From the NCBI RefSeq assembly GCF_000027125.1, contig NC_017626.1: 64,000 nucleotides of DNA; one strand, 5' to 3'. The notes beneath the pieces are model-generated. The model was not told the origin of the DNA and made no database searches. It worked only from the letters and a program-made list of their open reading frames with translations. A program made the translations under genes and the position numbers. Below are positions 40,384-52,452 of the stretch, piece after piece (the first letter of the stretch is position 1; each line of letters begins with the position of its first letter). The stretch is from Escherichia coli 042. GTDB taxonomy: Bacteria; Pseudomonadota; Gammaproteobacteria; Enterobacterales; Enterobacteriaceae.

Positions 40384-40530
40384 ATGGCAAAGCCGATCAT
40401 CACGCTCAATGGCCTAAAAATCGTCATTATGTTGGGAATGCTGGTCATTATTCTCTGCGGTATCCGTTTTGCCGCCGAGATCATCGTGCCGTTTATTCTC
40501 GCATTATTTATTGCTGTTATATATAACTAA
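40384..40530 (+). pseudogene. tqsA: tqsA 5' fragment (first 46 native codons, then island-derived I-Y-N-stop)
   Basis: [46 protein letters not shown] then frame leaves native sequence at 40521. Confidence 0.85.
40512..40520. repeat. attL core direct repeat TGCTGTTAT
   Basis: Identical 9-mer at 51546-51554; joining the flanks restores ...[18 protein letters not shown]... of TqsA. Confidence 0.65.
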
Positions 40531-40593: not shown

Positions 40594-40617
40594 ATGACTA
40601 CACCAGTGACTACACCG
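40594..40617. repeat. Arm-type tandem repeat ATGACTACACC-AGTGACTACACCG near attL
   Basis: Same 23-24 nt tandem motif present at 51395-51418 near attR in same orientation. Confidence 0.55.
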
Positions 40618-40934
40618 TTCGGTGCACTGTATGAAACAACGTGGAACAAATAGACACAAGAAATATACAGGCGGGTCATCTTTCCAGGGGGAAGCGCGCT
40701 AATTCATGAGGGGCGTTAATGTTGATATGGGGATCCCCATAACGGGGCTACCGGATTTTTTTTCCGGTTAACTGTTAATCAGGCTGGTGGGCTTTACCTG
40801 TTTTGTAGGAGTGGTCATTATGACCATTCAGACAATGACCTTAATCAGAACTTTTCGCTAAAAAATGACGTTGGTCACGTCGTCCGGAAAGCACAAAATC
40901 CCGTCAATTTTTAATTAACGGTTAAACCGTCTTT

Positions 40935-40980
40935 TGTCACGGCGTGTCACTGGTTGTCACTCTCCGTCACGGTATGTCGC
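40935..40980. repeat. Five GTCAC-type half-sites phased at exactly 10 bp
   Basis: tGTCACggcgtGTCACtggttGTCACtctccGTCACggtatGTCGC; GTCAC is the reverse complement of the GTGAC of the arm repeats. Confidence 0.5.
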
Positions 40981-40986
40981 TACTCG

Positions 40987-41268
40987 TTAACGCCGTAACC
41001 GCTCCGGCTTCTTCCAGTGGTACGTAATTTTCTCCGTTTCCCGATACAGTGCCACGCGGCGATTGTAGGCCAGCATTTCAAGAACGCGGATCCGTATGTT
41101 GCGCATATCCACATCATTAAGCTGGATACCATCACGGCGCATCACCTCAGCAACCACACGCGCGTAATTTTCGGCGGTCACGCTGTCCGGCTGCGTGGCC
41201 TGTTCGTCATGCTGCTGGCTGATTCCGGTAACGCGGCGGATTAATCCCAGTAGTTCGGCTTCTGTCAT
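40987..41268 (-). CDS. Hypothetical island protein (93 aa from MTEAELLGLIRR)
   Basis: ORF; start chosen downstream of cos copy 1 with GGGGG SD-like upstream; longer ORF-track N-terminus would read through cos. Confidence 0.35.
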   Translation of the reverse strand: MTEAELLGLIRRVTGISQQHDEQATQPDSVTAENYARVVAEVMRRDGIQLNDVDMRNIRIRVLEMLAYNRRVALYRETEKITYHWKKPERLRR

Positions 41269-41301
41269 TGTGCCCCCATCGCTCTGATAGTCTGGTGTCG
41301 T

Positions 41302-41366
41302 CGGGTCCTTCCTGGAATTATGGCCCGTTACGGGGCGGCGACCTCGCGCGTTTTCACTATTTATGA
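41302..41366 (+). other. Lambda-type cos site copy 1 (cosN GGGCGGCGACCT at 41333-41344), followed by ACCGGACAT repeats at 41383-41479
   Basis: cgggtccttcc...gttacgGGGCGGCGACCTcgcgcgttttcactatttatgaaaatttt closely matches recalled lambda cosQ-cosN-left-end sequence. Confidence 0.7.
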
Positions 41367-41547
41367 AAATTTTTCGGGATCCATGTCCGGTTTCTCTGCA
41401 AGTTAACCATATGAAAAATATAAAAACATGCTTTCCATGAACCGGACATGCGCAAAAAACAGACACTAAAACCGGACATCGAACCAGTTAACCGAAAGTG
41501 TGCACAAATCACATGCATTGCTGCGAGTGATTAACAAGTTATCGGCT

Positions 41548-41982
41548 TTACTGTTCTGTATCGGCTGATTGCTCCATGCTGGCACGGCGAACGCTTATGG
41601 CATGACGCCACCCAGCCAGAAAGCCAGCCATTTTATTTCGTGCCTTGCTCACATCTTCCGGTGAATAGCCGTAAATCTGCAAACCTTCATCAAATCGATG
41701 TTCTGTTTCTTCACTGGAGTACTCGTCACGCTCAGATGAAAGCAGCCTGGCAAACATAATTTTTTCCAGCGCACTGGTTTCTACGTGATATCTGATGGTC
41801 TCAAGACGGCTTTTACCTGAAGACCAAAGCAATGTATGCCCGATGTGATAACCGCCAGACTTTCCGCGATCCGCATTAAGATACGGCATCCCCTGTTTGG
41901 TCCATGCGCGAATAGTGGTTCTGTTAACCTTGAAATGTTCAGCTATTTCCTGCTGACTTACAAAACAAGCTTTATCAATCAT
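41548..41982 (-). CDS. Nu1-like small terminase / packaging-specificity protein (144 aa)
   Basis: N-terminus VSQQEIAEHFKVNRTTIRAWTKQGMPYL parallels lambda Nu1 VNKKQLADIFGASIRTIQNWQEQGMPVL winged-HTH. Confidence 0.65.
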   Translation of the reverse strand: MIDKACFVSQQEIAEHFKVNRTTIRAWTKQGMPYLNADRGKSGGYHIGHTLLWSSGKSRLETIRYHVETSALEKIMFARLLSSERDEYSSEETEHRFDEGLQIYGYSPEDVSKARNKMAGFLAGWRHAISVRRASMEQSADTEQ

Positions 41983-42049
41983 AATGTTACCTTAACTGCA
42001 TGGTTAAATATTAATCAAGTGGTGGTGGTGTCACCTTCACGGAAAAACG

Positions 42050-42115
42050 TCATAAATAGCGAAAACCCGCGAGGTCGCCGCCCCGTAACGGGCCATAATT
42101 CCAGGAAGGACCCGT
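42050..42115 (-). other. Lambda-type cos site copy 2, inverted relative to copy 1 (cosN complement at 42072-42083), 88 bp upstream of terS
   Basis: Reverse complement reads ...gttacgGGGCGGCGACCTcgcgggttttcgctatttatga; 63/65 identity to copy 1. Confidence 0.7.
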
Positions 42116-42137
42116 AAAAAAGCCGGATTTCTCCGGC
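42115..42137 (-). terminator. Rho-independent terminator ending capsid operon
   Basis: Minus strand GCCGGAgaaaTCCGGC followed by T-tract. Confidence 0.6.
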
Positions 42138-42143
42138 CTTGTC

Positions 42144-42557
42144 TCAGATGTTTTTCAGTATGCGATCGATGTCGCCGTCATCGCCCTGGTTTCTGCCATC
42201 GTATGCCATGCCAGCTGATACGGCTTGCGGGCTGTGCATGTCCATAAAGTTTTCAAAGGCTGCGGTAAGTTCCGGCGCAACCTTCGGACGTTCCTGCTCT
42301 ATGGTCATGCTAAGGATGCTTTTAGCCGTACCAACATCGATACAAGGCACGTTTGCCATTGCACGCAACAGCGGCTGATAGTCTTTATGCTCATGAAGCG
42401 CCATAATCGCATCAGCGCGCGGCTTGTCCTGCTCTTCCAGTTTGTTTAGTTGATGTACGGCCTCATAGGTTGATAAACCTCTGTCAGCCATTGCCCGCGC
42501 TTCGACTTTAAATTTACTCGCCAGCGGTAGCGTCATGATGCTTTCATTCGTTGCCAT
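42144..42557 (-). CDS. Hypothetical island protein (137 aa), last gene of capsid operon
   Basis: ORF co-directional and tightly spaced after D-like gene. Confidence 0.45.
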   Translation of the reverse strand: MATNESIMTLPLASKFKVEARAMADRGLSTYEAVHQLNKLEEQDKPRADAIMALHEHKDYQPLLRAMANVPCIDVGTAKSILSMTIEQERPKVAPELTAAFENFMDMHSPQAVSAGMAYDGRNQGDDGDIDRILKNI

Positions 42558-42569
42558 CGTTCCCCCTGC

Positions 42570-42905
42570 TTATCGGGCCAGCGGCTGAACGGATACGCCG
42601 GAACCCGCAAAGGCGGCGCATTTTTTCGCATCGGTGTCGACGCTCTCAGGCCAGTTAACGGCGGCAATATTGAATATCCCCGTCTTGTAACACTGTGCTG
42701 ATTTCTGCTTTGACGTGTCCACAGGGTACGAGGTCAGATAAACAGCCTTGCCAGATTCCTGACCATCCCACGGCTTAAACTCGCCATTGTCTGCCAGCAT
42801 CAGCGGGGTAAATTCCTGAATAACGCCAGCATCAGCGGCAAAATGTACCAACGTCGTGGATACCTGCTGACTGCCTGCAAATAACTCAATGTATGGAGTG
42901 TCCAT
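42570..42905 (-). CDS. Head decoration protein, lambda gpD homolog (111 aa)
   Basis: TPLMLADNGEFKPWDG...YKTGIFNIAAVNWPESVDTDAKKCAAFAGSGVSV parallels lambda D TPLMLDTSSRKLVAWDG...[35 protein letters not shown]. Confidence 0.8.
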   Translation of the reverse strand: MDTPYIELFAGSQQVSTTLVHFAADAGVIQEFTPLMLADNGEFKPWDGQESGKAVYLTSYPVDTSKQKSAQCYKTGIFNIAAVNWPESVDTDAKKCAAFAGSGVSVQPLAR

Positions 42906-42917
42906 AGAATCCCCCCG

Positions 42918-43973
42918 TTAACCAATTTTGACGGTAACAAATTTGCGAATATCTGCCGGTACCGGCTGCGGTGCACTGTGTGTCTGCACGTACTCAATCG
43001 CCGGATCGCCGTCCTCAATCCAGTTTTTCGGGTAAAACATGTTTTGTGTTGCGCCCGTTCTTACCGCTTCCTGATCCATTATCGCACCATAGGCCACCAG
43101 CCCTTTATTGTTGGTGTTACCCAGGACCAGCAAATCAGGCTCAAGGAAATATTTTTCGGTACCATCGCTGTCAGTGTATTTGCCGGAATAGACGATAAGG
43201 GCCAGATCACCAAGATAGCCTTTAAAGCTCACCACTTCGCCCAGGTTTTTACAGGCCAGTTCGGCGGCGGATTCTGAACCACGGGAAAGATCGTACAGCT
43301 CACGGAATTTTTTAAAGCTGCGTAATGTGCGCCATACCTCAGCGCCCATAATCATGACGTTTGCGGGGCAACCAGCCTGATCAGCATAAAGCTCGATGTC
43401 ATAGATTGGGTCGTGCATGTCTTTATCCTGCTCGGACCATTTTTTACCCTTGGCCTGCTCTATGATGCAGTTTTCCGGTATTTTCCAGTCGATTTCATAG
43501 CGTTCTATGCCTTCGCCCTCAATGATGTTTTTTCCGGTCGTTACCGCATTCACCGCCAGCCATTCCACGCGTGCCTTAATGGCGTTTATCTGGCGGCGCA
43601 TGTTGCCAGTAATCAGGCGCATACGGCGATAGGTAGGGTCGTTAAGCTGTGCCGGATCTTCTCCAGCCATGCGCATGATGGTTTTCGTTGGATCGATTTC
43701 GTGCTTTGGCTTCATGTAGCCAGGTTTGATTGTGCTGGTTTCGTACCCTTTATCGCGCTGAACCTGGCTACCCACCATAGGCGAACAAAACGCCGACATG
43801 GTGACTTCTTCAATGTCCAGGGTATCCAGCATGATGTTTTGCGTGCTGAATGTCGCCACGTTCGGGAAAAACAGCGTGGTAAACAGAGGGCTGAATTTAA
43901 AATCCGCAATATCCCCGCGATTCAGGTACATGAAAAGCTGGTTAGTGTTAAGTGCCGTTGCTTTGCCTGCCAT
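42918..43973 (-). CDS. Major capsid protein, lambda gpE homolog (351 aa)
   Basis: KPGYMKPKHEIDP, DPTYRRMRLITGNMR, VSFKGYLGDLALIVYSGKY, YPKNWIEDGDPA align along recalled lambda E. Confidence 0.85.
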   Translation of the reverse strand: MAGKATALNTNQLFMYLNRGDIADFKFSPLFTTLFFPNVATFSTQNIMLDTLDIEEVTMSAFCSPMVGSQVQRDKGYETSTIKPGYMKPKHEIDPTKTIMRMAGEDPAQLNDPTYRRMRLITGNMRRQINAIKARVEWLAVNAVTTGKNIIEGEGIERYEIDWKIPENCIIEQAKGKKWSEQDKDMHDPIYDIELYADQAGCPANVMIMGAEVWRTLRSFKKFRELYDLSRGSESAAELACKNLGEVVSFKGYLGDLALIVYSGKYTDSDGTEKYFLEPDLLVLGNTNNKGLVAYGAIMDQEAVRTGATQNMFYPKNWIEDGDPAIEYVQTHSAPQPVPADIRKFVTVKIG

Positions 43974-44179
43974 TATTCACCCCCATAATTTTTATGCATC
44001 CCAAGCGCCGCAAGTAAATAAGAGCGTACAAGTGAACCTATCGACGGCTCCGGCGTCATCAGCGGATCCAGTCCAGCCGCAACGCCAGCTTCATAGTTTT
44101 TTTTGTGGCGCTGCTTGAGCACCTCCACGATTTCGGGGCTTATGTACACCGAAACACCGCCTTTTTTCTCTTCAGCCAT
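43973..44179 (-). CDS. Small protein upstream of capsid gene, possible ribbon-helix-helix fold (68 aa)
   Basis: MAEEKKGGVSVYISPEIVEVLKQRHKK; GAGGA SD; stop overlaps capsid start. Confidence 0.35.
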   Translation of the reverse strand: MAEEKKGGVSVYISPEIVEVLKQRHKKNYEAGVAAGLDPLMTPEPSIGSLVRSYLLAALGMHKNYGGE

Positions 44180-44208
44180 AGTAAGAAATTCCTCTTCGAC
44201 TAAAAAAA

Positions 44209-44236
44209 TCATAACTGGATGTTTATCCAGTTATGA
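44209..44236. promoter_or_regulatory. Perfect 12-bp inverted repeat TCATAACTGGAT-gttt-ATCCAGTTATGA in capsid-operon promoter region
   Basis: Seen directly; 30 bp upstream of operon start; second palindrome ATTGCATtttATGCAAT at 44248-44264. Confidence 0.5.
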
Positions 44237-44388
44237 TTATAATCAGAATTGCATTTTATGCAATGATATTGAGTTATGTTGCAAATTATGAAATGATTAT
44301 CCCGATCACGAACGCCAGTGCATCCAAAAACCTCATATGCAAAAGCCCGATAAGAACCCTCTGACCTTATCGGGCTTTTTTTGGGCGC

Positions 44389-44410
44389 AAAAAAGCCGGA
44401 TTGCTCCGGC
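44389..44410 (-). terminator. Rho-independent terminator after 74-aa gene
   Basis: Same GCCGGA-loop-TCCGGC module plus T-tract; preceded by second hairpin 44345-44382. Confidence 0.55.
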
Positions 44411-44430
44411 TATGTGTGCTGTGTGCTGGC

Positions 44431-44655
44431 TCAGTCTCTGATCTCTTTCAGAAATTCTATCAATGCATCTATCTGTTCAGGATTTACCGCCAGCATTTCA
44501 CCGGATAGAGCACATCTCACAAAACCATGCTGATCCTTTTCAATCAGTGCGCCCGTCTCCAGGAATGCGCGGTAATCATTGATGCTCATCGTCTCCATGT
44601 TGTCAGCATGGTATTTATCACGCTGTTTTAATATCTCATCAAATTTCATCGGCAT
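44431..44655 (-). CDS. Hypothetical island protein (74 aa)
   Basis: ORF bracketed by terminators. Confidence 0.4.
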   Translation of the reverse strand: MPMKFDEILKQRDKYHADNMETMSINDYRAFLETGALIEKDQHGFVRCALSGEMLAVNPEQIDALIEFLKEIRD

Positions 44656-44751
44656 TGTTTTTTTCCTCTGTTGTGTCTGTTTGTTTCAGATAGTAACTAT
44701 GCCTGACCGTGACGAAAACCCGGTAATGCGCCATACCGTTTCAACTGGTGC

Positions 44752-44774
44752 AAAAAAAGCCGGATTTCTCCGGC
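44752..44774 (-). terminator. Rho-independent terminator after PerC-like gene
   Basis: GCCGGAgaaaTCCGGC plus T7 on minus strand. Confidence 0.6.
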
Positions 44775-44781
44775 TGTTTGA

Positions 44782-45054
44782 TTAGCTGTCCTGGTAATTG
44801 CGCCATATTTCATCACCAGCACCATCTATACCCATTTCGGCATAAGTGCGATCGACTGCCTTTTTCAGGTCTCCGAAATTATCCGGCGGCTCCGGTGCCC
44901 TCTGTGCCTTCCTTGAACATTCCAGCCGTCGCATCGTGATGTGATGCCGTTCCTTGTCTGTCTCCACCAGCTGCATGACTTCACCCCATCGCGCCGCCGC
45001 CCTCCGGTAAAAGCCTTTCGCCTCCAGTTCCTCCGCTATGCGGTCATGTACCAT
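44782..45054 (-). CDS. PerC/Pch-family transcriptional regulator (90 aa)
   Basis: AEELEAKGFYRRAAARWGEVM resembles recalled Pch/PerC signature (…LEAQGLWRRAAARW…); GAGGGGG SD before ATG. Confidence 0.55.
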   Translation of the reverse strand: MVHDRIAEELEAKGFYRRAAARWGEVMQLVETDKERHHITMRRLECSRKAQRAPEPPDNFGDLKKAVDRTYAEMGIDGAGDEIWRNYQDS

Positions 45055-45064
45055 CGTCACCCCC

Positions 45065-45475
45065 TCAGAACGAAATATCATCACCGTAAGGGTCATCGCC
45101 TCCCGCTGGTGGCTGATTACCCTGTGTGCCTGTGGTTTTGCGTCTGTTCCCGCCTGGACGTGCCGCGCGGGCACTGATTACGCTGTCTGCGATAACCTGC
45201 CAGCCCTGCCGCGTTTCTCCGTTCTGTCCGGTCCACTGGCTTACCTGCATCGTGCCGGATACGCTGGCAACATCGCCTTTTTGATGTTTAGCCAGGAAGT
45301 CGGCCTGTTTGCCAAATGCGATGACCGATAACCATAACGTCGCCTGTCCGTCCTGTGCCTGGCTGCATGGCAAAGATACCGCCATACGCGCCAGCGTCAT
45401 CGGTGTGCCCTTGCTGGTCTGTTTTACCTGCGGGTCGTCCACCAGCCGCCCGTAAGCGGCTATCTGTGCCGTCAT
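45065..45475 (-). CDS. ssb: Single-stranded DNA-binding protein (SSB)
   Basis: OB-fold region and Gly/Pro-rich tail ending DDPYGDDISF (cf. E. coli SSB C-terminal DDDIPF). Confidence 0.8.
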   Translation of the reverse strand: MTAQIAAYGRLVDDPQVKQTSKGTPMTLARMAVSLPCSQAQDGQATLWLSVIAFGKQADFLAKHQKGDVASVSGTMQVSQWTGQNGETRQGWQVIADSVISARAARPGGNRRKTTGTQGNQPPAGGDDPYGDDISF

Positions 45476-45723
45476 AATTCCACCTCTCCGGTTTTAACGT
45501 TGATGGTTGTTACCTGTTCCGCTTCGGCAATCTCCCGTTCTGTCAGCGTGGCAAAGTTTGCCGCCGCCGTGGTCATGAATGCGCTTATCAGGTCGGGATG
45601 TTCCTTCGCGTATCCTTCCCGCGTGTGGCGGTCTATCGTTCTGATTGCCACCTTTAAGGTGTGCTCAGTCATGTCTAACGCTTTATATTTTGGCTCTGTT
45701 CTGTCTCTGCGTTTTTGGGTCAT
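45472..45723 (-). CDS. Hypothetical small protein between ori and ssb
   Basis: ORF; start uncertain (45723 or 45672). Confidence 0.3.
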   Translation of the reverse strand: MTQKRRDRTEPKYKALDMTEHTLKVAIRTIDRHTREGYAKEHPDLISAFMTTAAANFATLTEREIAEAEQVTTINVKTGEVEL

Positions 45724-45734
45724 TTCTCGCAACC

Positions 45735-45926
45735 TCTCACTTTTTCGCCTCACTTTTTCAAGCGTCTCACTTCGTCGCAGTTGGGATTTTCGGTTTTTCT
45801 ATGTGTGTGTTTCATAAGTATTTTTTTACCCCTCACTTTTGAGGATGTATACAGGTCGAAAAGTGAGGGAGAGCGGGCTAATTTTGGCCCTCTTTCTATC
45901 CCCCTCGCTTTTGCTCCTCACTTTTA
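45735..45926. repeat. Iteron array (CTCACTTTT, at least 6 copies, both orientations) with AT-rich spacer: putative island replication origin
   Basis: Copies at 45735, 45748, 45766, 45832, 45858 (inverted), 45916; directly 3' of pri-rep gene. Confidence 0.55.
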
Positions 45927-47324
45927 TAGCGGCGCTACATCATCCCCATCGATACGAATAACCCCATCTTTTTCCAGCTTGTACAGCCAGCGCCGGAAGT
46001 TTTTCATTTCATACCCCAGCTTTTTCATGTCATCACGTAACAGCGGGATCGTGCACTTGTCGCCGTTCTGTGTGCGTGAACGGATGCACCCCCATAGCGC
46101 GGTATGGTTTTCCGTCTTGTTCCCTGCCTCCTCGATGCGCTCCAGTTCAACAGGAGGGCGCGGATCATCCACCACCACCAGCGACGTGATTAATTCACCG
46201 TCAGCGTCGGTAAAAAGCTCCACCACGCGTAAGTCATATGCGGCTTCTTTGAGTTCCTCCGCGTCCTTCATTTTGGTGCATGAGATAACCAGCGCTTCGC
46301 TTCCTGCGTCCTCCCTGCGTATCCGGTATTCAGCATCCAGCGAAGCACGAAATGCACTGGAACCGCGCGCGCCTTTCGTCTCATCCTTGCCGGAATGGTG
46401 AACCACCAGCACCGTGGCCCCTGTGCGTCGTTTCAGTTCGTCACAACCACGGATAAACGCCCCCATATCACGGGAATCATTTTCATCATTCCCACCAAAG
46501 CAACGCGCCAGCGTATCCAGAATAATCATGCGTACAGGTTTACCCGTTTCCCGCTCCACCTGACGGGCAGCGATAACCATTTCATCAACATCAAGCGGGG
46601 CAGCCGGAAAGATGGGGCGGTTTACCAGATACAGATTTTTCACCTGCTCATCGTGCACAACCTCCCAGGCTTTTACACGACGCGGAACACCTATACCGCC
46701 TTCACCAACCACATAGAGAACCGCACCATGTGCAACCCTGCGGCCTCCCCACTGGCGACCAGTGGCAACATGGCACGCCCACGATCCAGCAAGGAATGAT
46801 TTATAGGACCCGCTAGCCCCGTATATGCTGCATAGCGATACCGCCGGAATAATCCCCTTAACCACGTAATCCAGTTGCGTGTCGTATCCGGTAGATCCAA
46901 CGCTCATCGGTAGCGTGGTTTTTCGCTGGTGTTTTTTTTCTTCCGCCGGCTCTTTCCCGCGCACCCGTTCCAGGTATTCGCGCCAGTTCTCCCGCATATG
47001 GCTGTGCATCCCTTCGGGGTAATAATTCGCATCAGTTACACCCGCCGCCGCCAGCTTGTGCGCAATGGCATTAATATTTGATGGCCTGATGTGGCCTGCC
47101 TTGTACAGCCGGACACAATAGCGCCCCTCGTCGATGATTCTCAGGTCTGCCAGTTCATCCAGTTGATCATCAGCCAGCACAACGGGAGGCACATTATCGC
47201 CAGCCAGTCGCCCGTCCTGTTCCTGCCACTGTTTCGCATGTGCCCAGGCATCACTACCCGCAAAAATAATGACTTCGGTCATCTTGTCGTAAGGCTGTTT
47301 TTTTAAGTTCGGTGCGCTTTTCAT
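45924..47324 (-). CDS. Primase/replicase-type AAA ATPase (RepA/AAA_25-like, 466 aa)
   Basis: Walker A GASGSYKS, Walker B MIILDTLARCFGG, VVHHSGKDETKGARGSSAF sensor region. Confidence 0.8.
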   Translation of the reverse strand: MKSAPNLKKQPYDKMTEVIIFAGSDAWAHAKQWQEQDGRLAGDNVPPVVLADDQLDELADLRIIDEGRYCVRLYKAGHIRPSNINAIAHKLAAAGVTDANYYPEGMHSHMRENWREYLERVRGKEPAEEKKHQRKTTLPMSVGSTGYDTQLDYVVKGIIPAVSLCSIYGASGSYKSFLAGSWACHVATGRQWGGRRVAHGAVLYVVGEGGIGVPRRVKAWEVVHDEQVKNLYLVNRPIFPAAPLDVDEMVIAARQVERETGKPVRMIILDTLARCFGGNDENDSRDMGAFIRGCDELKRRTGATVLVVHHSGKDETKGARGSSAFRASLDAEYRIRREDAGSEALVISCTKMKDAEELKEAAYDLRVVELFTDADGELITSLVVVDDPRPPVELERIEEAGNKTENHTALWGCIRSRTQNGDKCTIPLLRDDMKKLGYEMKNFRRWLYKLEKDGVIRIDGDDVAPL

Positions 47325-47620
47325 TTCTTGCCCCTGAATCCGTTAACCATGGTTTTCAGCTTCTGGATGTTTGCCCGTGCCCTGGCGTTGCTGGTGGGCA
47401 CGTTATGCGGCGCGGTCTGTACCAGAGAAAAATCACGCCGGAACTGATAAACAGGCATCACGCAATCATATTCGTAACCTTCACGGCGGTAGGTTACGCG
47501 CCGTTCTTCCACGTCCTTAATCATTACCGTGCCGCCGTACTGGTCGCGGTAAATATCACCGCGCGTAAATTTAGGGTGAGTGTTGCCACTGGCAGTTAAG
47601 CCAGAATATTTAAGTTTCAT
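47321..47620 (-). CDS. Hypothetical island protein (99 aa)
   Basis: ORF in tight operon; stop overlaps pri-rep start. Confidence 0.45.
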   Translation of the reverse strand: MKLKYSGLTASGNTHPKFTRGDIYRDQYGGTVMIKDVEERRVTYRREGYEYDCVMPVYQFRRDFSLVQTAPHNVPTSNARARANIQKLKTMVNGFRGKK

Positions 47621-47625
47621 TATTT

Positions 47626-47859
47626 TTATTCTCCGGTGTGCTGTTCTTTATATCTGTCGTGCAATAGATCTATTTCTTGCAGTTCCATTATTACAGGCTC
47701 AAGAAGCGTTATTAATGCTGTGGCAATTCTTGATTTTTGTTTGTCGCGTTCATTGTCGCCAAGTGTTTCAAGCCATATGCGCAATATTTCCATCATGTTT
47801 TCACTGTGAGAAAGTGCAAGAAATGCGCGGTCTATTGTTTGGTGGTAAATATCACGCAT
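47626..47859 (-). CDS. Hypothetical island protein (77 aa)
   Basis: ORF in operon. Confidence 0.4.
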   Translation of the reverse strand: MRDIYHQTIDRAFLALSHSENMMEILRIWLETLGDNERDKQKSRIATALITLLEPVIMELQEIDLLHDRYKEQHTGE

Positions 47860-48319
47860 GGCTTACATCCTCAGGAAATTTTCTTCTATAACGCGCCTCT
47901 GCCACATATTCCGCATAATCGGCGGCGATATTCAGTACATCAAGCCCCGTTGATTTATATTCTCTCGTGGAAAGTAAGAAAAAAGCCGCTCTAATAAGTT
48001 CTGGCATTGACGAAAGCGCATCAGCCGCATCATCAGGAACGCCGGAAAATTCCTGTTTCAGGGAATTAAAACGATCATCACGCATAACCCCCCCCCCATT
48101 TTCACAATCAGCAATCAGGATAGCTTTGGCCTCATTCAGCGCCGTATCAGCACTAAATTGCATGACAGCCAGTGAGTGAGGAACGAAAGCACCGGCATAT
48201 TCTGTTTCGCTGGTGGCGTGCTTATGTGCCCTGTCCGCGATAACAGAAATATCAATCAGCGCGTGCATCAGCGTTTTGATGGCTTCGGCGGCTGCGTCCG
48301 GTGTGGTTTTATTGTGCAT
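47852..48319 (-). CDS. Hypothetical island protein (155 aa)
   Basis: ORF in operon. Confidence 0.45.
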   Translation of the reverse strand: MHNKTTPDAAAEAIKTLMHALIDISVIADRAHKHATSETEYAGAFVPHSLAVMQFSADTALNEAKAILIADCENGGGVMRDDRFNSLKQEFSGVPDDAADALSSMPELIRAAFFLLSTREYKSTGLDVLNIAADYAEYVAEARYRRKFPEDVSHA

Positions 48320-48521
48320 AAAGCATCCCCTGAATATTCGTGTTAATCATTCCGGCACGTTTTGTGATTTCCTGTAATGATTCCCTTGTGGCGACAATTG
48401 CTTCATCTGGTAAGTGGTAATTACACACCACGCGACCTTTATCCACATTGACCAGTAGCTGCCCTGTGAATTTCTCACGAAACTGAATGCGGTTAAGGTC
48501 AGTAAGTGACAGATTAATCAT
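48309..48521 (-). CDS. Hypothetical island protein (70 aa)
   Basis: AGGAGG immediately upstream of ATG at 48521. Confidence 0.45.
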   Translation of the reverse strand: MINLSLTDLNRIQFREKFTGQLLVNVDKGRVVCNYHLPDEAIVATRESLQEITKRAGMINTNIQGMLYAQ

Positions 48522-48711
48522 GGCGCACCTCCTGACGAATACGGGCGGCAAATACAGCAACACAACCGGACGGGCAACGGTTACGCGCTTCGCGTTCCGT
48601 CCAGGCGGTTACGTGGATGATTTGAGATTCTCCGGCACTCAGTGCCAGAAAACGCCACACAAAGGCCGTTTGTGTGTGTACAAGGTGTGGTATATGATTT
48701 ACAGCAACCAT
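48514..48711 (-). CDS. Hypothetical island protein (65 aa), first gene of leftward operon
   Basis: AGGAG SD upstream of ATG at 48711. Confidence 0.4.
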   Translation of the reverse strand: MVAVNHIPHLVHTQTAFVWRFLALSAGESQIIHVTAWTEREARNRCPSGCVAVFAARIRQEVRHD

Positions 48712-48804
48712 AACGGCTCCTAGTTTACGTTGTTGGTTAGAAGCCCTGCGAGTGGTAACGACACTTGCGGGGCTTTGTCTTTTCATCGATTACCTTGATA
48801 AAGG

Positions 48805-48884
48805 TGTCAGCCACTATATTAGTAACGGGTGTCAGCCACGTCAATAGTGTTTTTCCGTTTTCTTGTGTGTATACTGTCAGCCAC
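48805..48884. promoter_or_regulatory. Three direct repeats TGTCAGCCAC in divergent promoter region, with TATACT -10-like element
   Basis: Repeats at 48805-48814, 48830-48839, 48875-48884. Confidence 0.5.
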
Positions 48885-48905
48885 CTAATAACGAGGAAAT
48901 CAGAT

Positions 48906-49085
48906 ATGGCAACAAAAGCAGTTAATGCAAAATCCAAAAAGCTTGAGGCTCGAGTACCACACGCAATAGCTGATGCTGTAGAAAATTTAAAGGAAGATGG
49001 CGAAAGTACAGGGCAATTTATCGTTTCGGCACTTGAAGGCGAGATCAAACGCCGCCAGCGCCGCAAGGCCAAAGAATCAGAATAA
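48906..49085 (+). CDS. Ribbon-helix-helix (CopG/Arc-like) putative repressor (59 aa)
   Basis: KKLEARVPHAIADAVENLKEDGESTGQFIVSALEGEIKR fits beta-strand/helix/helix RHH pattern; divergent from main operon. Confidence 0.5.
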   Translation: MATKAVNAKSKKLEARVPHAIADAVENLKEDGESTGQFIVSALEGEIKRRQRRKAKESE

Positions 49086-49127
49086 TCACTATCAGCGCCG
49101 TGGTGTGAGGTATTACGGCGCATTGCT

Positions 49128-49316
49128 ATGCAGGACAACACAATGACCGATAAAGAATTGACCAAAACATTATCACCGGCACGGAAAAGACGGCGCAGAA
49201 AGATAGAGCATGAATCAGAAAGATTCGCACCATGTGCTTTTGCCCTTGAGCAATTCCTTAAAGAGTACAGGGAAAAGCGCTCATTGCAGGTATGGCAACG
49301 AACTGAACCAGACTGA
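49128..49316 (+). CDS. Hypothetical small basic protein (62 aa or shorter from MTDKEL)
   Basis: ORF followed by hairpin plus T7 at ~49410-49440. Confidence 0.3.
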   Translation: MQDNTMTDKELTKTLSPARKRRRRKIEHESERFAPCAFALEQFLKEYREKRSLQVWQRTEPD

Positions 49317-49585
49317 TTGCATTGCCCACCAGCCTGATAGCGGCTATCATCCCCGTGCTTATGTTTGGGATCACACACACAAACGGCGCAGCGGGTTATC
49401 TGTTCAGAAAGGCGGCTCCATTTCGGGGCCGCTTTTTTTATACCTGAAAAACCCCAATTTTGTTGTTTTTCAGTTTCACCAGGGCGAACGAATCCCCGCC
49501 CACGTTCTGGCGTATATTCAATCTTCATGGTTATAGCTCTGTGTTCAGATGATTGATGTGTGGCGGCTGCGTGCCGCCAGCGTGA

Positions 49586-49774
49586 TTAATGAACTGCCTT
49601 GCAGCTATCCTTCCAGGCCAGAACCTCGGATAAAGACCAGCCAACGGAACGACCGCCAAGTTTACGACGTGATGGGAATTGTCCGGCCTTTTCCAGGCGG
49701 TAGCGACACGTACGGCTAAGGCCGGTTAGTTTTTCGCATTCTTTTTCACGTATAAACCGATCAGTGCTTAACAC
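49586..49774 (-). CDS. alpA: AlpA-family excision/transcription regulator
   Basis: 62 aa MLSTDRFIREKECEKLTGLSRTCRYRLEKAGQFPSRRKLGGRSVGWSLSEVLAW. Confidence 0.8.
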   Translation of the reverse strand: MLSTDRFIREKECEKLTGLSRTCRYRLEKAGQFPSRRKLGGRSVGWSLSEVLAWKDSCKAVH

Positions 49775-50048
49775 TATTGCCCCCCCTTTCGTTTCTTAAA
49801 GAGTCATCAGGTGTCTTATTGTGTCGTATTGTTCCCGCTAGAGTGATGAATGGCAAATATTGAGGATGTATGATTTACAGAAAATGAAACAGTAAGAATA
49901 AAATCTTTTAAATTCATGTTAATACAAAGGCATAAAATATTGTTTCATGCCTTTTTTCTCGCTCTTTAAAGAGTGATTCGCTAGTGTATAAAAAACCAGT
50001 GACACATTAAAAATCAGCCACTTATAAATCTGTATGCTTTTTCGCCTC

Positions 50049-50123
50049 TTGTTCGTGGTTGTTCCACATTGTTGCTCATTGTTGCACGTTGTATCTGTTC
50101 GCATATACAGTATGCGCATACTG
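50049..50123. promoter_or_regulatory. Five TTGTTSC-like repeats at ~10-bp spacing plus 16-bp perfect palindrome CAGTATGCGCATACTG (50108-50123) in int-alpA intergenic region
   Basis: Seen directly. Confidence 0.4.
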
Positions 50124-50140
50124 AAAAAACACGAAAAAAA

Positions 50141-51370
50141 TTATTTTCTTCTGGCTACTGGTAGCGTGGTTACGTTTTCATGTGTTCCCGCCAGTATCCC
50201 TAACCGCTCCGTCCACATATCCAGCGCATTGCGTTTAGCATCCAGATAACGGGAATGATTATAAACTCGCTGCATTCCTGGCATCTGGTGGCCTGTAAGC
50301 TGCTCCACGACATGCGGATCAACGCCTAAATCGTTCAGCATGGTTGTAAAGGTGCGCCGGATGTCATGCAGTGACCAGTGAGGATGATTAAGCCTCCTGT
50401 GCGCTAATCTTCCATACTGCGATACGCTGGCCTCCTGTTTCACTTCCCCCAGCAATAAGCCCGTGTGCCTGTTCTGCTCCACCAGCTGCGTGACGAACGG
50501 CAGGATCGCTTCCGGTATGGGCCGGAATATTGCGACCTTCGTTTTGCTGTGCTCCTTCGGAACGGTCCATAGCATTTCCGTAAAATCCCACTCCCCGATC
50601 TCCGATAACCTCAGTTCTACCGTTCTGGCTCCGAAGACAATCAGGAGGCGGATTAACGCGACGTAGTAAGGGGAGAATATTTTTTTGTCCAGTGCCTGCA
50701 ATAATTCGCCAAGTTCTTTGTTACTTAAGACACGTTCGCTTATATCCGGTTTTTTCCCAACGTCCGCCACGTTCAGATCGTCCAGAACGTTGCTGATTGC
50801 ATAGCGCCGCCTACGGCAGAACTTAAGCGCCTGTTTGCACGCCTGTAGCACGAATCCGGCAGTAACAGGCGTTCGCTTTGCCACCTGGTCAAAACAGGCC
50901 AGCCAGTGCCGTAGCTCGCATTTATCCAGCGGCATAGCACCAATCTGCTGTATTACGTGATTATTAAGTCGCCTTTTCAGGGCGATATAATCCACGCGGT
51001 TTTCCTTTACGTAATACTCAAGCCAGTAGGTGAGCGCATCGCCAACCGTTACCGGCTTTAACGCTTCCTGTACGGTGTAATTAAGCTCATGACGTGGATT
51101 TTTCCCCTCTGCCAGCCATGCGCGACACTGGGCGGCTTTTTCCCTGGCTGATTTCAGGCTCAGATCAGGATAACTTCCCAGCTTAATGCGTTCGGGTCGT
51201 GTCTCCCTTCCCGTTCCGGCCCTGTATGTGAAATACCAGGTCAATTTCCCTGATGTTAAATATTTCACGCTCAGGTTTCCGCCATCACTATAAAACGTGT
51301 TTTTCTCCGCTGGCTTACCATGAAGTTTCCTTAGCAAGGTATCGCTCAGTTTGTTCATTGCTCTGCTCAC
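50141..51370 (-). CDS. int: P4-type tyrosine integrase (start GTG 51370 or ATG 51358)
   Basis: 409-aa ORF; catalytic region ...HDIRRTFTTMLNDLGVDPHVVEQLTGHQMPGMQRVYNHSRY; adjacent to attR. Confidence 0.9.
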   Translation of the reverse strand: MSRAMNKLSDTLLRKLHGKPAEKNTFYSDGGNLSVKYLTSGKLTWYFTYRAGTGRETRPERIKLGSYPDLSLKSAREKAAQCRAWLAEGKNPRHELNYTVQEALKPVTVGDALTYWLEYYVKENRVDYIALKRRLNNHVIQQIGAMPLDKCELRHWLACFDQVAKRTPVTAGFVLQACKQALKFCRRRRYAISNVLDDLNVADVGKKPDISERVLSNKELGELLQALDKKIFSPYYVALIRLLIVFGARTVELRLSEIGEWDFTEMLWTVPKEHSKTKVAIFRPIPEAILPFVTQLVEQNRHTGLLLGEVKQEASVSQYGRLAHRRLNHPHWSLHDIRRTFTTMLNDLGVDPHVVEQLTGHQMPGMQRVYNHSRYLDAKRNALDMWTERLGILAGTHENVTTLPVARRK

Positions 51371-51394: not shown

Positions 51395-51418
51395 GTGACT
51401 ACACCAGTGACTACACCG
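51395..51418. repeat. Arm-type tandem repeat GTGACTACACC-AGTGACTACACCG near attR
   Basis: Matches 40594-40617. Confidence 0.55.
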
Positions 51419-51545
51419 ATCGTTGCACAAAGGGCTACAACGTGAAACAAGCTGGAACAAGGAAAATCACAAATCTGTTGATAATCAAAAACATAATGCA
51501 CAGCCTGAAACATTATGAAACAGCAAAAAACACCAAATGATAAAA

Positions 51546-51554
51546 TGCTGTTAT
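51546..51554. repeat. attR core direct repeat TGCTGTTAT
   Basis: Identical to 40512-40520. Confidence 0.65.
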
Positions 51555-51567
51555 TCTTAACCCGCTG

Positions 51568-52452
51568 GTGCAACACATGGTCCGCTGGCGAGTGCCGCGT
51601 GTACTGGCGGTGTCGATTTTGATGACCATCATCGTGATGGCGATGGTGTTGCTGTTAGCTTATCTGGGTTCCGCGCTCAACGAGTTGACGCGGACGTTAC
51701 CGCAATATCGCAACTCTATTATGACGCCGCTGCAAGCGATTGAACCGTTGTTGCAACGCGTAGGGATTGATGTCTCAGTTGACCAACTGGCGCATTACAT
51801 TGATCCGAACGCGGCGATGACGTTGCTCACCAACTTATTGACGCAGTTATCTAATGCCATGTCATCAATATTTTTATTGCTGCTGACGGTGCTGTTTATG
51901 CTGCTCGAAGTGCCACAATTGCCCGGAAAATTTCAGCAAATGATGGCGCGTCCGGTTGAAGGGATGGCGGCGATTCAGCGTGCGATTGACAGTGTTTCTC
52001 ATTATCTGGTGCTGAAAACAGCCATCAGCATCATCACCGGCCTGGTCGCCTGGGCGATGCTCGCCGCACTCGATGTTCGCTTCGCTTTTGTCTGGGGATT
52101 GCTGGCCTTTGCGCTTAATTACATCCCTAATATTGGTTCAGTTCTCGCAGCAATTCCCCCTATCGCTCAGGTACTGGTGTTTAATGGCTTCTACGAAGCG
52201 TTGTTGGTGCTGGCGGGATATCTGCTGATTAATCTGGTCTTCGGCAATATTCTGGAGCCGCGCATCATGGGACGTGGGCTGGGGCTTTCGACATTGGTGG
52301 TATTTTTGTCGTTGATTTTTTGGGGATGGTTGTTAGGACCGGTGGGTATGCTGCTTTCCGTGCCGTTGACAATTATTGTCAAAATTGCGCTTGAACAAAC
52401 AGCGGGAGGTCAAAGCATCGCCGTTCTGTTAAGCGATCTCAATAAAGAGTGA
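51568..52452 (+). pseudogene. tqsA: tqsA 3' fragment (lacks first ~55 codons; internal GTG/ATG present)
   Basis: [26 protein letters not shown]... continues TqsA frame to native stop. Confidence 0.85.

Follow-up and report, generated by a model that had tools for sequence, protein, structure and literature searches.

A phased GTCAC array in the non-coding tail of a phage-inducible chromosomal island from Escherichia coli, a tentative docking site for a helper-phage replication initiator

Arrays of short direct repeats phased to the DNA helix are an already known kind of element. Examples are the lambda Xis sites X1-X1.5-X2, the P2 Cox boxes and the lambda arm-type sites P'1-P'3, with the core GTCAC, in all of which short direct repeats stand about one turn apart in an arm of the attachment (att) site. 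Here we describe a phased GTCAC array in a stretch of 64,000 nucleotides from Escherichia coli 042 (contig NC_017626.1 of assembly GCF_000027125.1), hereafter the window. The array resides in an 11-kb satellite, a phage-inducible chromosomal island (PICI), which is inserted in tqsA and flanked by a short and a long tqsA fragment. A sequence-only reading of this DNA had proposed the array as a binding site for integrase (Int), for AlpA or another recombination directionality factor (RDF), or for a nucleoid protein.

Unlike the RDF and arm-type arrays, the PICI array is far from the att core, at a variable distance, and does not track the Int or RDF type. A satellite array that is read by a helper protein is found in P4, which has phased Cox boxes upstream of its late promoter that are bound by the Cox protein of its helper P2; that case differs from the present one in its promoter position and known binder, whereas the PICI array sits at the 3' end of an operon. 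The dependence of P4 activation on P2 Cox is mentioned in PMC6092414. For PICIs themselves, the published features include two cos sites, Rpp and an origin 3' of rep (PMC6092414, PMC6739421, PMC9026076), and the integrase, AlpA, origin, cos sites and Rpp have already been studied. The PICI origin, described as two iteron sets on either side of an AT-rich region 3' of rep (PMC6092414), has short direct repeats as the array does but lies at a separate location and uses a different motif. The PICI papers searched neither describe the non-coding DNA that separates the att site from the last late gene nor mention the array.

Phage origin iterons offer two further comparisons. The iterons of replisome organizer or YdaU-DnaT initiators (vB_EcoS-640R1 'O', PHROG 1408) resemble the array in their (T)GTCAC core, their 4 to 6 direct copies, their 10- to 11-bp period and their single orientation. 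They differ in lying inside their own initiator gene with an A/T-rich block on the 3' side, whereas the PICI array is intergenic and has two GTCACT units. The lambda-type O iterons (PF04492) of PhiR12-like phages have the half-site TGTCAC(C), like the array, and the PhiR12 cos/cosB is also shared with the PICI, but these iterons are inverted pairs about 20 bp apart that are bound by a dimer, while the units of the array are direct and 10 bp apart.

The array and its constraint across alleles

Direct reading of the + strand gives ttttGTCACggcgtGTCACtggttGTCACtctccGTCACggtatGTCGCtactcgTTA for positions 40931-40989. Four exact GTCAC cores start at 40936, 40946, 40956 and 40966, and the fifth unit (40976-40980) is a degenerate GTCGC with one mismatch; the five GTCAC half-sites first noticed are therefore four exact ones and a fifth that has lost the motif. 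The steps between all five units are exactly 10 bp. Against the ~10.5 bp of a helical turn, four such steps add up to a drift of ~70 degrees over the array, and the earlier statement that all units lie on one face of the helix holds only approximately. The description of the array as near attL is likewise loose, since it begins 416 bp inside the int-distal junction and 320 bp past the int-distal arm-type doublet, with a distance to the att core of 416-460 bp. Both the pattern of four phased GTCAC and its five-unit version with one mismatch occur nowhere else in the 64 kb, and the phased pattern appeared in none of 100 dinucleotide-preserving shuffles of the window, while the GTCAC pentamer alone is not enriched across the window (103 found versus 99.7 expected). 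The array is real and non-random, with four cores and one degenerate unit.

The array starts 6 bp past the stop codon of ORF93, the last gene of the PICI late operon, and reads GTGAC on the ORF93-sense strand (open reading frame, ORF). On the operon strand, ORF93 is followed by the array, terminator-like hairpins, a PICI-shared block with a Chi site, the int-distal att arm and the core. Lying between the ORF93 stop and the terminators, the array is part of the 3' tail that is transcribed; a search for a promoter adjoining it gave none that was convincing.

Array-bearing relatives, gathered from complete E. coli genomes and from IMG/VR, provide 13 distinct alleles of the array. In this set, variation affects 1 of 30 positions in the TGTCAC cores and 12 of 20 in the spacers (Fisher p = 1e-5), the sole variable core position being the one in the window's own fifth unit. 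Units 4 and 5 carry recombination junctions, and over units 1-3 the cores vary at 0/18 and the spacers at 5/12 positions (p = 0.006). Two alleles are short of exactly one 10-bp unit (unit 1 or unit 2), and in both the phase is kept. The array block is ~92% identical, spacers included, in elements where the ORF93 proteins are only 76-79% identical to that of the window. Constrained cores, free spacers and unit-precise deletions therefore fit a phased protein-binding site, and the sequence-only reading of a phased array of the protein-bound kind is in this respect borne out by the 13-allele contrast and the 10-bp deletions.

Among 70 usable ORF93 loci, the array was present in 36 and absent from 34. 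It was found in 280 of 5426 complete E. coli genomes, and ORF93 in 1566 of them (29%), so that ~80% of the ORF93-positive genomes are without the array; neither ORF93 nor a PICI-type array was found in the GTDB species representatives. The array lies from 6 to 401 bp beyond the ORF93 stop, from which none to several hairpin cassettes (0 upwards) separate it, and its orientation relative to ORF93 is constant and always upstream of terminator-like hairpins. It occurs with RepA-type, primase-type and DUF927-type replication proteins, with and without rpp, and also in capsid-forming PICIs that have TerS/TerL/HNH and no rpp. Whether an element has the array does not depend on which type of integrase, AlpA, replication protein, Rpp/cos or capsid module it carries. 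With its 4-5 direct TGTCAC cores in exact 10-bp phase, the array forms a cis-module of the non-coding PICI tail in E. coli that is self-contained and portable.

When all ORFs of the 70 loci were clustered, no strong association of a linked PICI gene with the array was seen in this sample, which includes incomplete contigs and redundant copies; the best gene-family association was with the RepA type (17/36 loci with the array versus 7/34 without, p = 0.02). We infer that the array docks a DNA-binding protein that is supplied in trans and not by a linked PICI gene.

Phage replication initiators that carry GTCAC arrays

An exact-pattern scan of IMG/VR for four GTCAC at 10 bp gave at least 120 loci, and the counts of arrays, units and steps given here are those among the matches listed. 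Seventeen belong to this PICI family. Of 92 distinct non-PICI arrays, 67 are within ORFs that encode at least 100 aa. A single BLAST-linked protein family accounts for 51 of these 67, and in all 51 the array is on the coding strand. In that family, the E. coli-type member carries a DnaT domain and has a match to PHROG 1408/3729 'replication initiation protein'; PHROG replication-initiation and primosomal families are matched as well by a second, smaller cluster of array-containing ORFs that is separate from it. In lambdoid genomes, the array-bearing initiator gene is found after cI-cro-cII, in the place of O. In Escherichia phage vB_EcoS-640R1, the 'O' gene contains GTCACggcgaGTCACgaaatGTCACgcacatGTCACgacgaGTCAC and then GATAAAGATACAGATAAAGATACAGATCAAGAAGATC, which amount to five GTCAC at 10-11 bp with an A/T-rich block and thus to a lambda-ori layout. 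The unit consensus is T-GTCAC-G, and the period is 10 bp in 324 of 357 steps. We take these in-gene GTCAC repeats to be the origins of those phages.

The initiator gene region is found in 2077 of the 5426 complete E. coli genomes (38%), and PGAP labels some copies 'phage replisome organizer'. PhiR12_1, whose cos/cosB matches the phage-type cos of the PICI, encodes a Pfam Phage_rep_O protein and has in-gene TGTCACC/GGTGACA half-sites. From the organizer-type and PhiR12-type data together, it follows that many of the lambdoid prophages found in the same cells as these PICIs have GTCAC-reading initiators.

The phage genes have some further features. In the initiator genes (L013 6030-6095; L202 2656-2693 and 2907-2995; at least 51 IMG/VR loci), the 4 to 6 GTCAC at 10-11 bp are translated as VT.(C/S)H-type linkers, and the repeats often precede GAT/AGA-rich DNA. 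The PhiR12_1 O gene (L203 12750-12850) has four iterons, TGTCACC-AAAAC-GGTGACA versus TCCCTC-AAAAC-GAGGGA in lambda, and the A/T-rich part of its origin is nearly identical to that of lambda.

Our tentative explanation is that the array is an orphan, iteron-like docking site for the replication initiator of a helper phage. The best candidate binder is the organizer-type initiator of resident or helper lambdoid prophages, the sole one that sequence evidence ties to the array by core, copy number, orientation and spacing alike. In a cell with an active helper that has such an initiator, its monomers would load head-to-tail on the five cores, roughly on one side of the helix. The helper replication machinery could thereby be drawn onto the excised satellite; alternatively, amplified satellite copies could titrate the initiator and handicap the helper. 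The array would in either case act as a helper-specific accessory site, comparable to the phage-type cos of the element. A broader form of this proposal, that PICIs carry 'orphan' origin iterons matching the initiators of common lambdoid prophages as a modular cis-site for borrowing or for decoy titration, is conceivable, though we would put it forward only as a doubtful possibility.

Several observations weigh against a helper initiator as the binder. The partner is hypothetical, since tblastn of the window revealed no initiator homologue encoded there. The PICI array is intergenic, whereas all 51 family phage arrays are in-gene on the coding strand. An A/T-rich stretch (40896-40934) lies 5' of the PICI array and ORF93 coding DNA lies 3' of it, the reverse of the phage origins, although only 10 of 94 sampled arrays passed a crude test for an A/T-rich tail, a loosely defined feature. 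Phage units are mostly GTCACG (182/357), versus GTCACT in two units of the PICI array. With its A/T-rich stretch on the opposite side and its two GTCACT units, the array does not reproduce an origin faithfully. Spacers shared by PICI and phage arrays are no commoner than expected by chance, and descent from a phage array, to which a 17-mer shared by L013 and the window (TGTCACGGCGTGTCACT) might have pointed, is not supported, as this match is within chance over all comparisons. Other GTCAC arrays lie between terL and the portal gene or beside a tRNA and an integrase gene, so the motif alone does not identify its binder. The array family is confined to E. coli strains and has little evolutionary depth, and many of the loci are near-identical copies, which weakens both the allele and the association statistics.

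Alternative binders and functions

An alternative that we consider unlikely is that the array serves a protein encoded by all these PICIs (ORF93, the PerC-like protein, the DUF4222 protein or the small ORF at 43973-44212) or a host factor such as a nucleoid protein, for example as a roadblock or insulator at the late operon's end, ahead of the terminators and the att arm. The constant orientation to ORF93 upstream of the hairpins would suit such a role, as would constrained cores and phase for which no type-specific partner turned up. A universal partner is difficult to reconcile with the absence of the array from about half of the sampled ORF93 elements and from most ORF93-positive genomes, and with L156 and L164, which retain the flanking block without either the array or hairpin cassettes. 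As for ORF93 itself, the protein is conserved in Rpp-type and capsid-forming PICIs with or without the array, its alleles do not sort by array status, and its only homologues are close E. coli ones, all annotated as hypothetical. Its AlphaFold 2 model, of low confidence (three helices, pLDDT 65), predicts no recognisable DNA-binding fold, and the case for ORF93 as the binder is unsupported.

No known E. coli factor fits the geometry of the array either. The pho box of PhoB consists of 11-bp direct repeats with a CTGTCAT core and an A/T-rich 4-bp spacer, whereas the period of the array is exactly 10 bp and its spacers are G+C-rich. The matS site of MatP is a 13-bp palindrome, GTGACRNYGTCAC; all five cores of the array are direct, and GTGAC-n3-GTCAC does not occur in it.

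A recombination accessory site, at which AlpA, the arm-binding domain of Int or another RDF (possibly a helper Xis) bends the int-distal arm and so controls excision or integration, is in our view improbable. In its favour, RDF sites and clustered arm-type sites are typically laid out as direct repeats one helical turn apart, the array is in the int-distal arm, which is the side of the Xis sites in lambda, and the window-type Int is present in 10 of 11 array-bearing elements with known Int. Cross-talk between PICIs and helper excisionases has also been reported (PMC11773190). The arm repeat moreover has GTGAC, and GTCACTGGT is common to the array and to the reverse complement of the arm doublet. 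The array had in fact been described as the reverse complement of the GTGAC in the arm repeats. This is literally true for one of the two arm repeats (AGTGACTACACC), but the pentamer is not a conserved link, as related elements combine GTCAC arrays with the arm repeats TTGACTACACC / ATTAACTACACC. What relatives have in common in the arm is the core ACTACACC, with TGAC/TTAAC variable, and not GTGAC.

The array tracks neither the Int nor the AlpA type, and the proposal of integrase or AlpA as its binder is not supported. The element L199 occupies the same tqsA site, with Int 99% and AlpA 98% identical to those of the window and identical arm doublets, and has no phased GTCAC anywhere. L152, L144 and L178 likewise have the window type of Int and AlpA without the array (identities of 94-99% across these and L199). 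The opposite case is L002, which has five perfect array units with an unrelated Int (25% identity) and an AlpA-type gene without a tblastn match to the window AlpA (E <= 1e-3, at least half length); its attachment site is a different one, beside a tRNA-Pro gene, with arm repeats CGTATAAC / TATCCGTTAT. In addition, the array is hundreds of base pairs from the core, and its spacing from the arm doublet ranges from ~260 to ~500 bp among relatives. As a set of integrase arm-type sites, the array shares only the GTGAC pentamer, and only with the doublet of this element, without following the Int type. As an attP-arm RDF site, it has the phasing of about one turn and neither tracks the RDF and Int nor keeps a fixed position near the core.

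A different repeat, G[ACG]AACAA, fits the recombination role better. A scan of the 64-kb window at 9-12 bp spacing found only three clusters, in both arms and in the int-alpA gap, where the direct repeats stand 10-11 bp apart; the estimated chance expectation is ~0.07 phased pairs in the window. One pair lies 17 bp past the left-arm doublet, and its counterpart has the same relative position in the right arm. All elements examined whose arms or Int/AlpA are of the window type (L001, L003, L004, L152, L187, L199, L200 and L204) have such clusters, and the three with unrelated Int/AlpA (L002, L129 and L164) lack them. It has been reported that other PICIs have, as here, a doubled arm motif on each side of attP and that AlpA activates its own promoter (PMC10111431). 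In their placement and in tracking Int and AlpA, the G[ACG]AACAA repeats thus act like sites that belong to the AlpA/Int module, unlike the GTCAC array, and their distribution makes them likely AlpA sites, for RDF function or autoregulation.

A neutral relic, either a decaying 10-bp minisatellite or a captured fragment of a phage origin in a hypervariable tail, would likewise be a poor bet. Mosaic tail cassettes come and go and many elements dispense with the array, which is limited to E. coli with little divergence and whose fifth core has already been lost in the window (GTCGC), all as expected for a relic. What a relic would not explain is that substitutions fall in the spacers and not in the cores, in the full set as in the conservative subset, that indels keep the phase, and that the block is better conserved than the adjacent ORF93; concerted evolution would have homogenised the spacers too. 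An RNA element, in which GUGAC repeats in the 3' untranslated region of the late transcript bind an RNA-binding protein or affect stability, is very improbable: the array is transcribed and the neighbouring cassettes are hairpins whose stems differ and whose flanks are conserved, but the tail is predicted to fold hardly better than shuffles do (z = -2.0), most of the array is in no distinctive structure, the tail has no Rfam match, and an exact 10-nt register has no obvious meaning in RNA.

Other assignments were tried and rejected. The array is not the PICI's own origin, which uses AAAGTGAGG, and L001 has an identical array with CTGTCTACC iterons. It is not a cosB or Rpp site, as it lies 353 bp from the nearest cosN on the cosQ side, beyond the ~200-bp range of cosB, and is present without rpp; no association with either cosB type was seen, and the proposed R3-PICI (GGTGACACCACCACC) contains GTGAC as a single pentamer only. 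A phage-derived segment was likewise dismissed, since no phage record covers the array or ORF93 and only the cos part matches. No plasmid match to the array was found. Around the PICI of strain clone D i2, no helper prophage was seen beside the element, only housekeeping genes and insertion sequence elements.

The host element and its modular tail

The element that carries the array is a Gram-negative PICI of the Rpp type, and its features are collected in Table 1. After Int and AlpA, the genes on the - strand are an Icd-like gene and small genes, then DUF4222, then the RepA-type helicase; the origin is followed by genes for SSB and a PerC-like protein and then by lambda E-type capsid, D-type decoration and Nu3-like genes.

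Table 1. Positions of the array and of other PICI features in the window
Feature	Position	Strand	Details
att identity block TGCTGTTAT, int-distal junction	40512..40520	+	9 bp; inside tqsA
Int-distal arm-type doublet	40595..40616	+	TGACTACACC-ag-TGACTACACC; 12-bp period
Phased G[ACG]AACAA pair beside int-distal arm doublet	40633..40649	+	GAAACAA-n4-GGAACAA
End block common to PICIs with different integrases	40729..40792	+	GGGGATCCCC...CCGGATTTTTTTTCCGG...TCAGGCTGGTGGG
Two terminator-like hairpins, operon-strand downstream of array	40860..40921	-	40921->40901; 40881->40867 then ATTTTTT
Phased GTCAC array	40935..40980	+	five 10-bp units TGTCACggcg / TGTCACtggt / TGTCACtctc / cGTCACggta / TGTCGC
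ORF93, last PICI late-operon gene	40987..41268	-	93 aa; phrog_1561; no Pfam family
ORF93-proximal lambda-type cos	41302..41500	+	cosQ-like GGGTCCT; cosN GGGCGGCGACCT at 41333-41344; phage-type cosB
Rpp-like gene	41548..41982	-	Nu1/TerS-like N-terminal helix-turn-helix; cf. PMC6739421, PMC9026076
rpp-proximal lambda-type cos	42037..42114	-	cosN 42072-42083
PICI origin, directly 3' of RepA-type helicase	45742..45925	-	AAAGTGAGG iterons, two sets around AT-rich stretch
RepA-type helicase gene	45924-47324	-	
AlpA	49586..49774	-	PF05930; 62 aa
Phased G[ACG]AACAA repeats, int-alpA intergenic, upstream of alpA	50059..50085	-	three units and a fourth degenerate unit
Tyrosine integrase with arm-DNA-binding domain	50141..51370	-	PF13356 + PF00589
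Int-proximal arm-type doublet	51396..51417	+	TGACTACACC-ag-TGACTACACC
Phased G[ACG]AACAA pair beside int-proximal arm doublet	51444..51460	+	GAAACAA-n4-GGAACAA
att identity block TGCTGTTAT, int-proximal junction	51546..51554	+	

The insertion splits the AI-2 exporter gene tqsA into 40384-40530 and 51568-52452, with the identity block within the coding sequence, and the N-terminal fragment meets a new stop two codons into the island. The two cos sites are inverted (41302-41379 and 42037-42114; 78 nt, 91% complementary) and flank the rpp-like gene; a pair of cos sites has been known before from EcCICFT073. The ORF93-proximal cos is 93% identical to the PhiR12 phage cos, and in its phage-type cosB an A/T-rich stretch is surrounded by three CCGGACAT R-like sites. 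At the rpp-proximal cos, 102 bp lie between the cohesive end and the start codon of rpp, the same value as reported for PICI-C. Between the decoration gene and cos, a 137-aa ORF (42144-42557, -) matches only the C-terminal part of head-maturation protease/scaffold proteins (phrog_53 496-567) and may be a Nu3-like scaffold fragment kept by the PICI.

The iterons of the PICI origin vary with the Rep type, being AAAGTGAGG with the RepA-type helicase and CTGTCTACC with the primase type (L001 16050-16290), and outside Rep and the origin the window element and L001 are nearly identical. A conserved Chi site, GCTGGTGG, is found at 40783-40790 inside the end block. Chi sites are about five-fold over-represented in the PICI (window 40783-50486), with 11 in 11 kb versus 11 in the other 53 kb and an expectation of 1.6 from whole-window shuffles.

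The tail of these PICIs is a mosaic that consists, in this order, of 0 to ~8 hairpin cassettes, an optional GTGAC array, a AAAGACGGT(T/A)TTAA block and the shared end block. The cassettes (L004 11440-12000; L199, L152, L178 and L187) are short hairpins whose stems differ from copy to copy, among them CCTCAATTTGAGG, CGCAAAATTGCG, CCCCCATTGGGGG and CTACGAAATTTTCGTAG, and their flanks are conserved, TGATATT...GGCGGTAAC (GGTAAC), fitting the consensus WATCAANNNNTTR of integration host factor (IHF). The cassettes were considered as lambda-O iterons, with which the half-sites are alike, but their arms are 2-3 bp closer than in lambda ITN1-4 and they have no BLAST match in phages.

These results remove the tempting mis-annotation of the GTCAC array as an AlpA or integrase site, for which the G[ACG]AACAA repeats are the better-supported candidate, and they show the PICI tail to be built from interchangeable cis-modules. 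If a helper initiator does dock on the array, a PICI would for the first time be seen to sense, exploit or handicap the replication of its helper through a device made of DNA only. It would add a replication-level, DNA-only layer to the conflict between satellite and helper, beside the known hijacking of packaging by Rpp.

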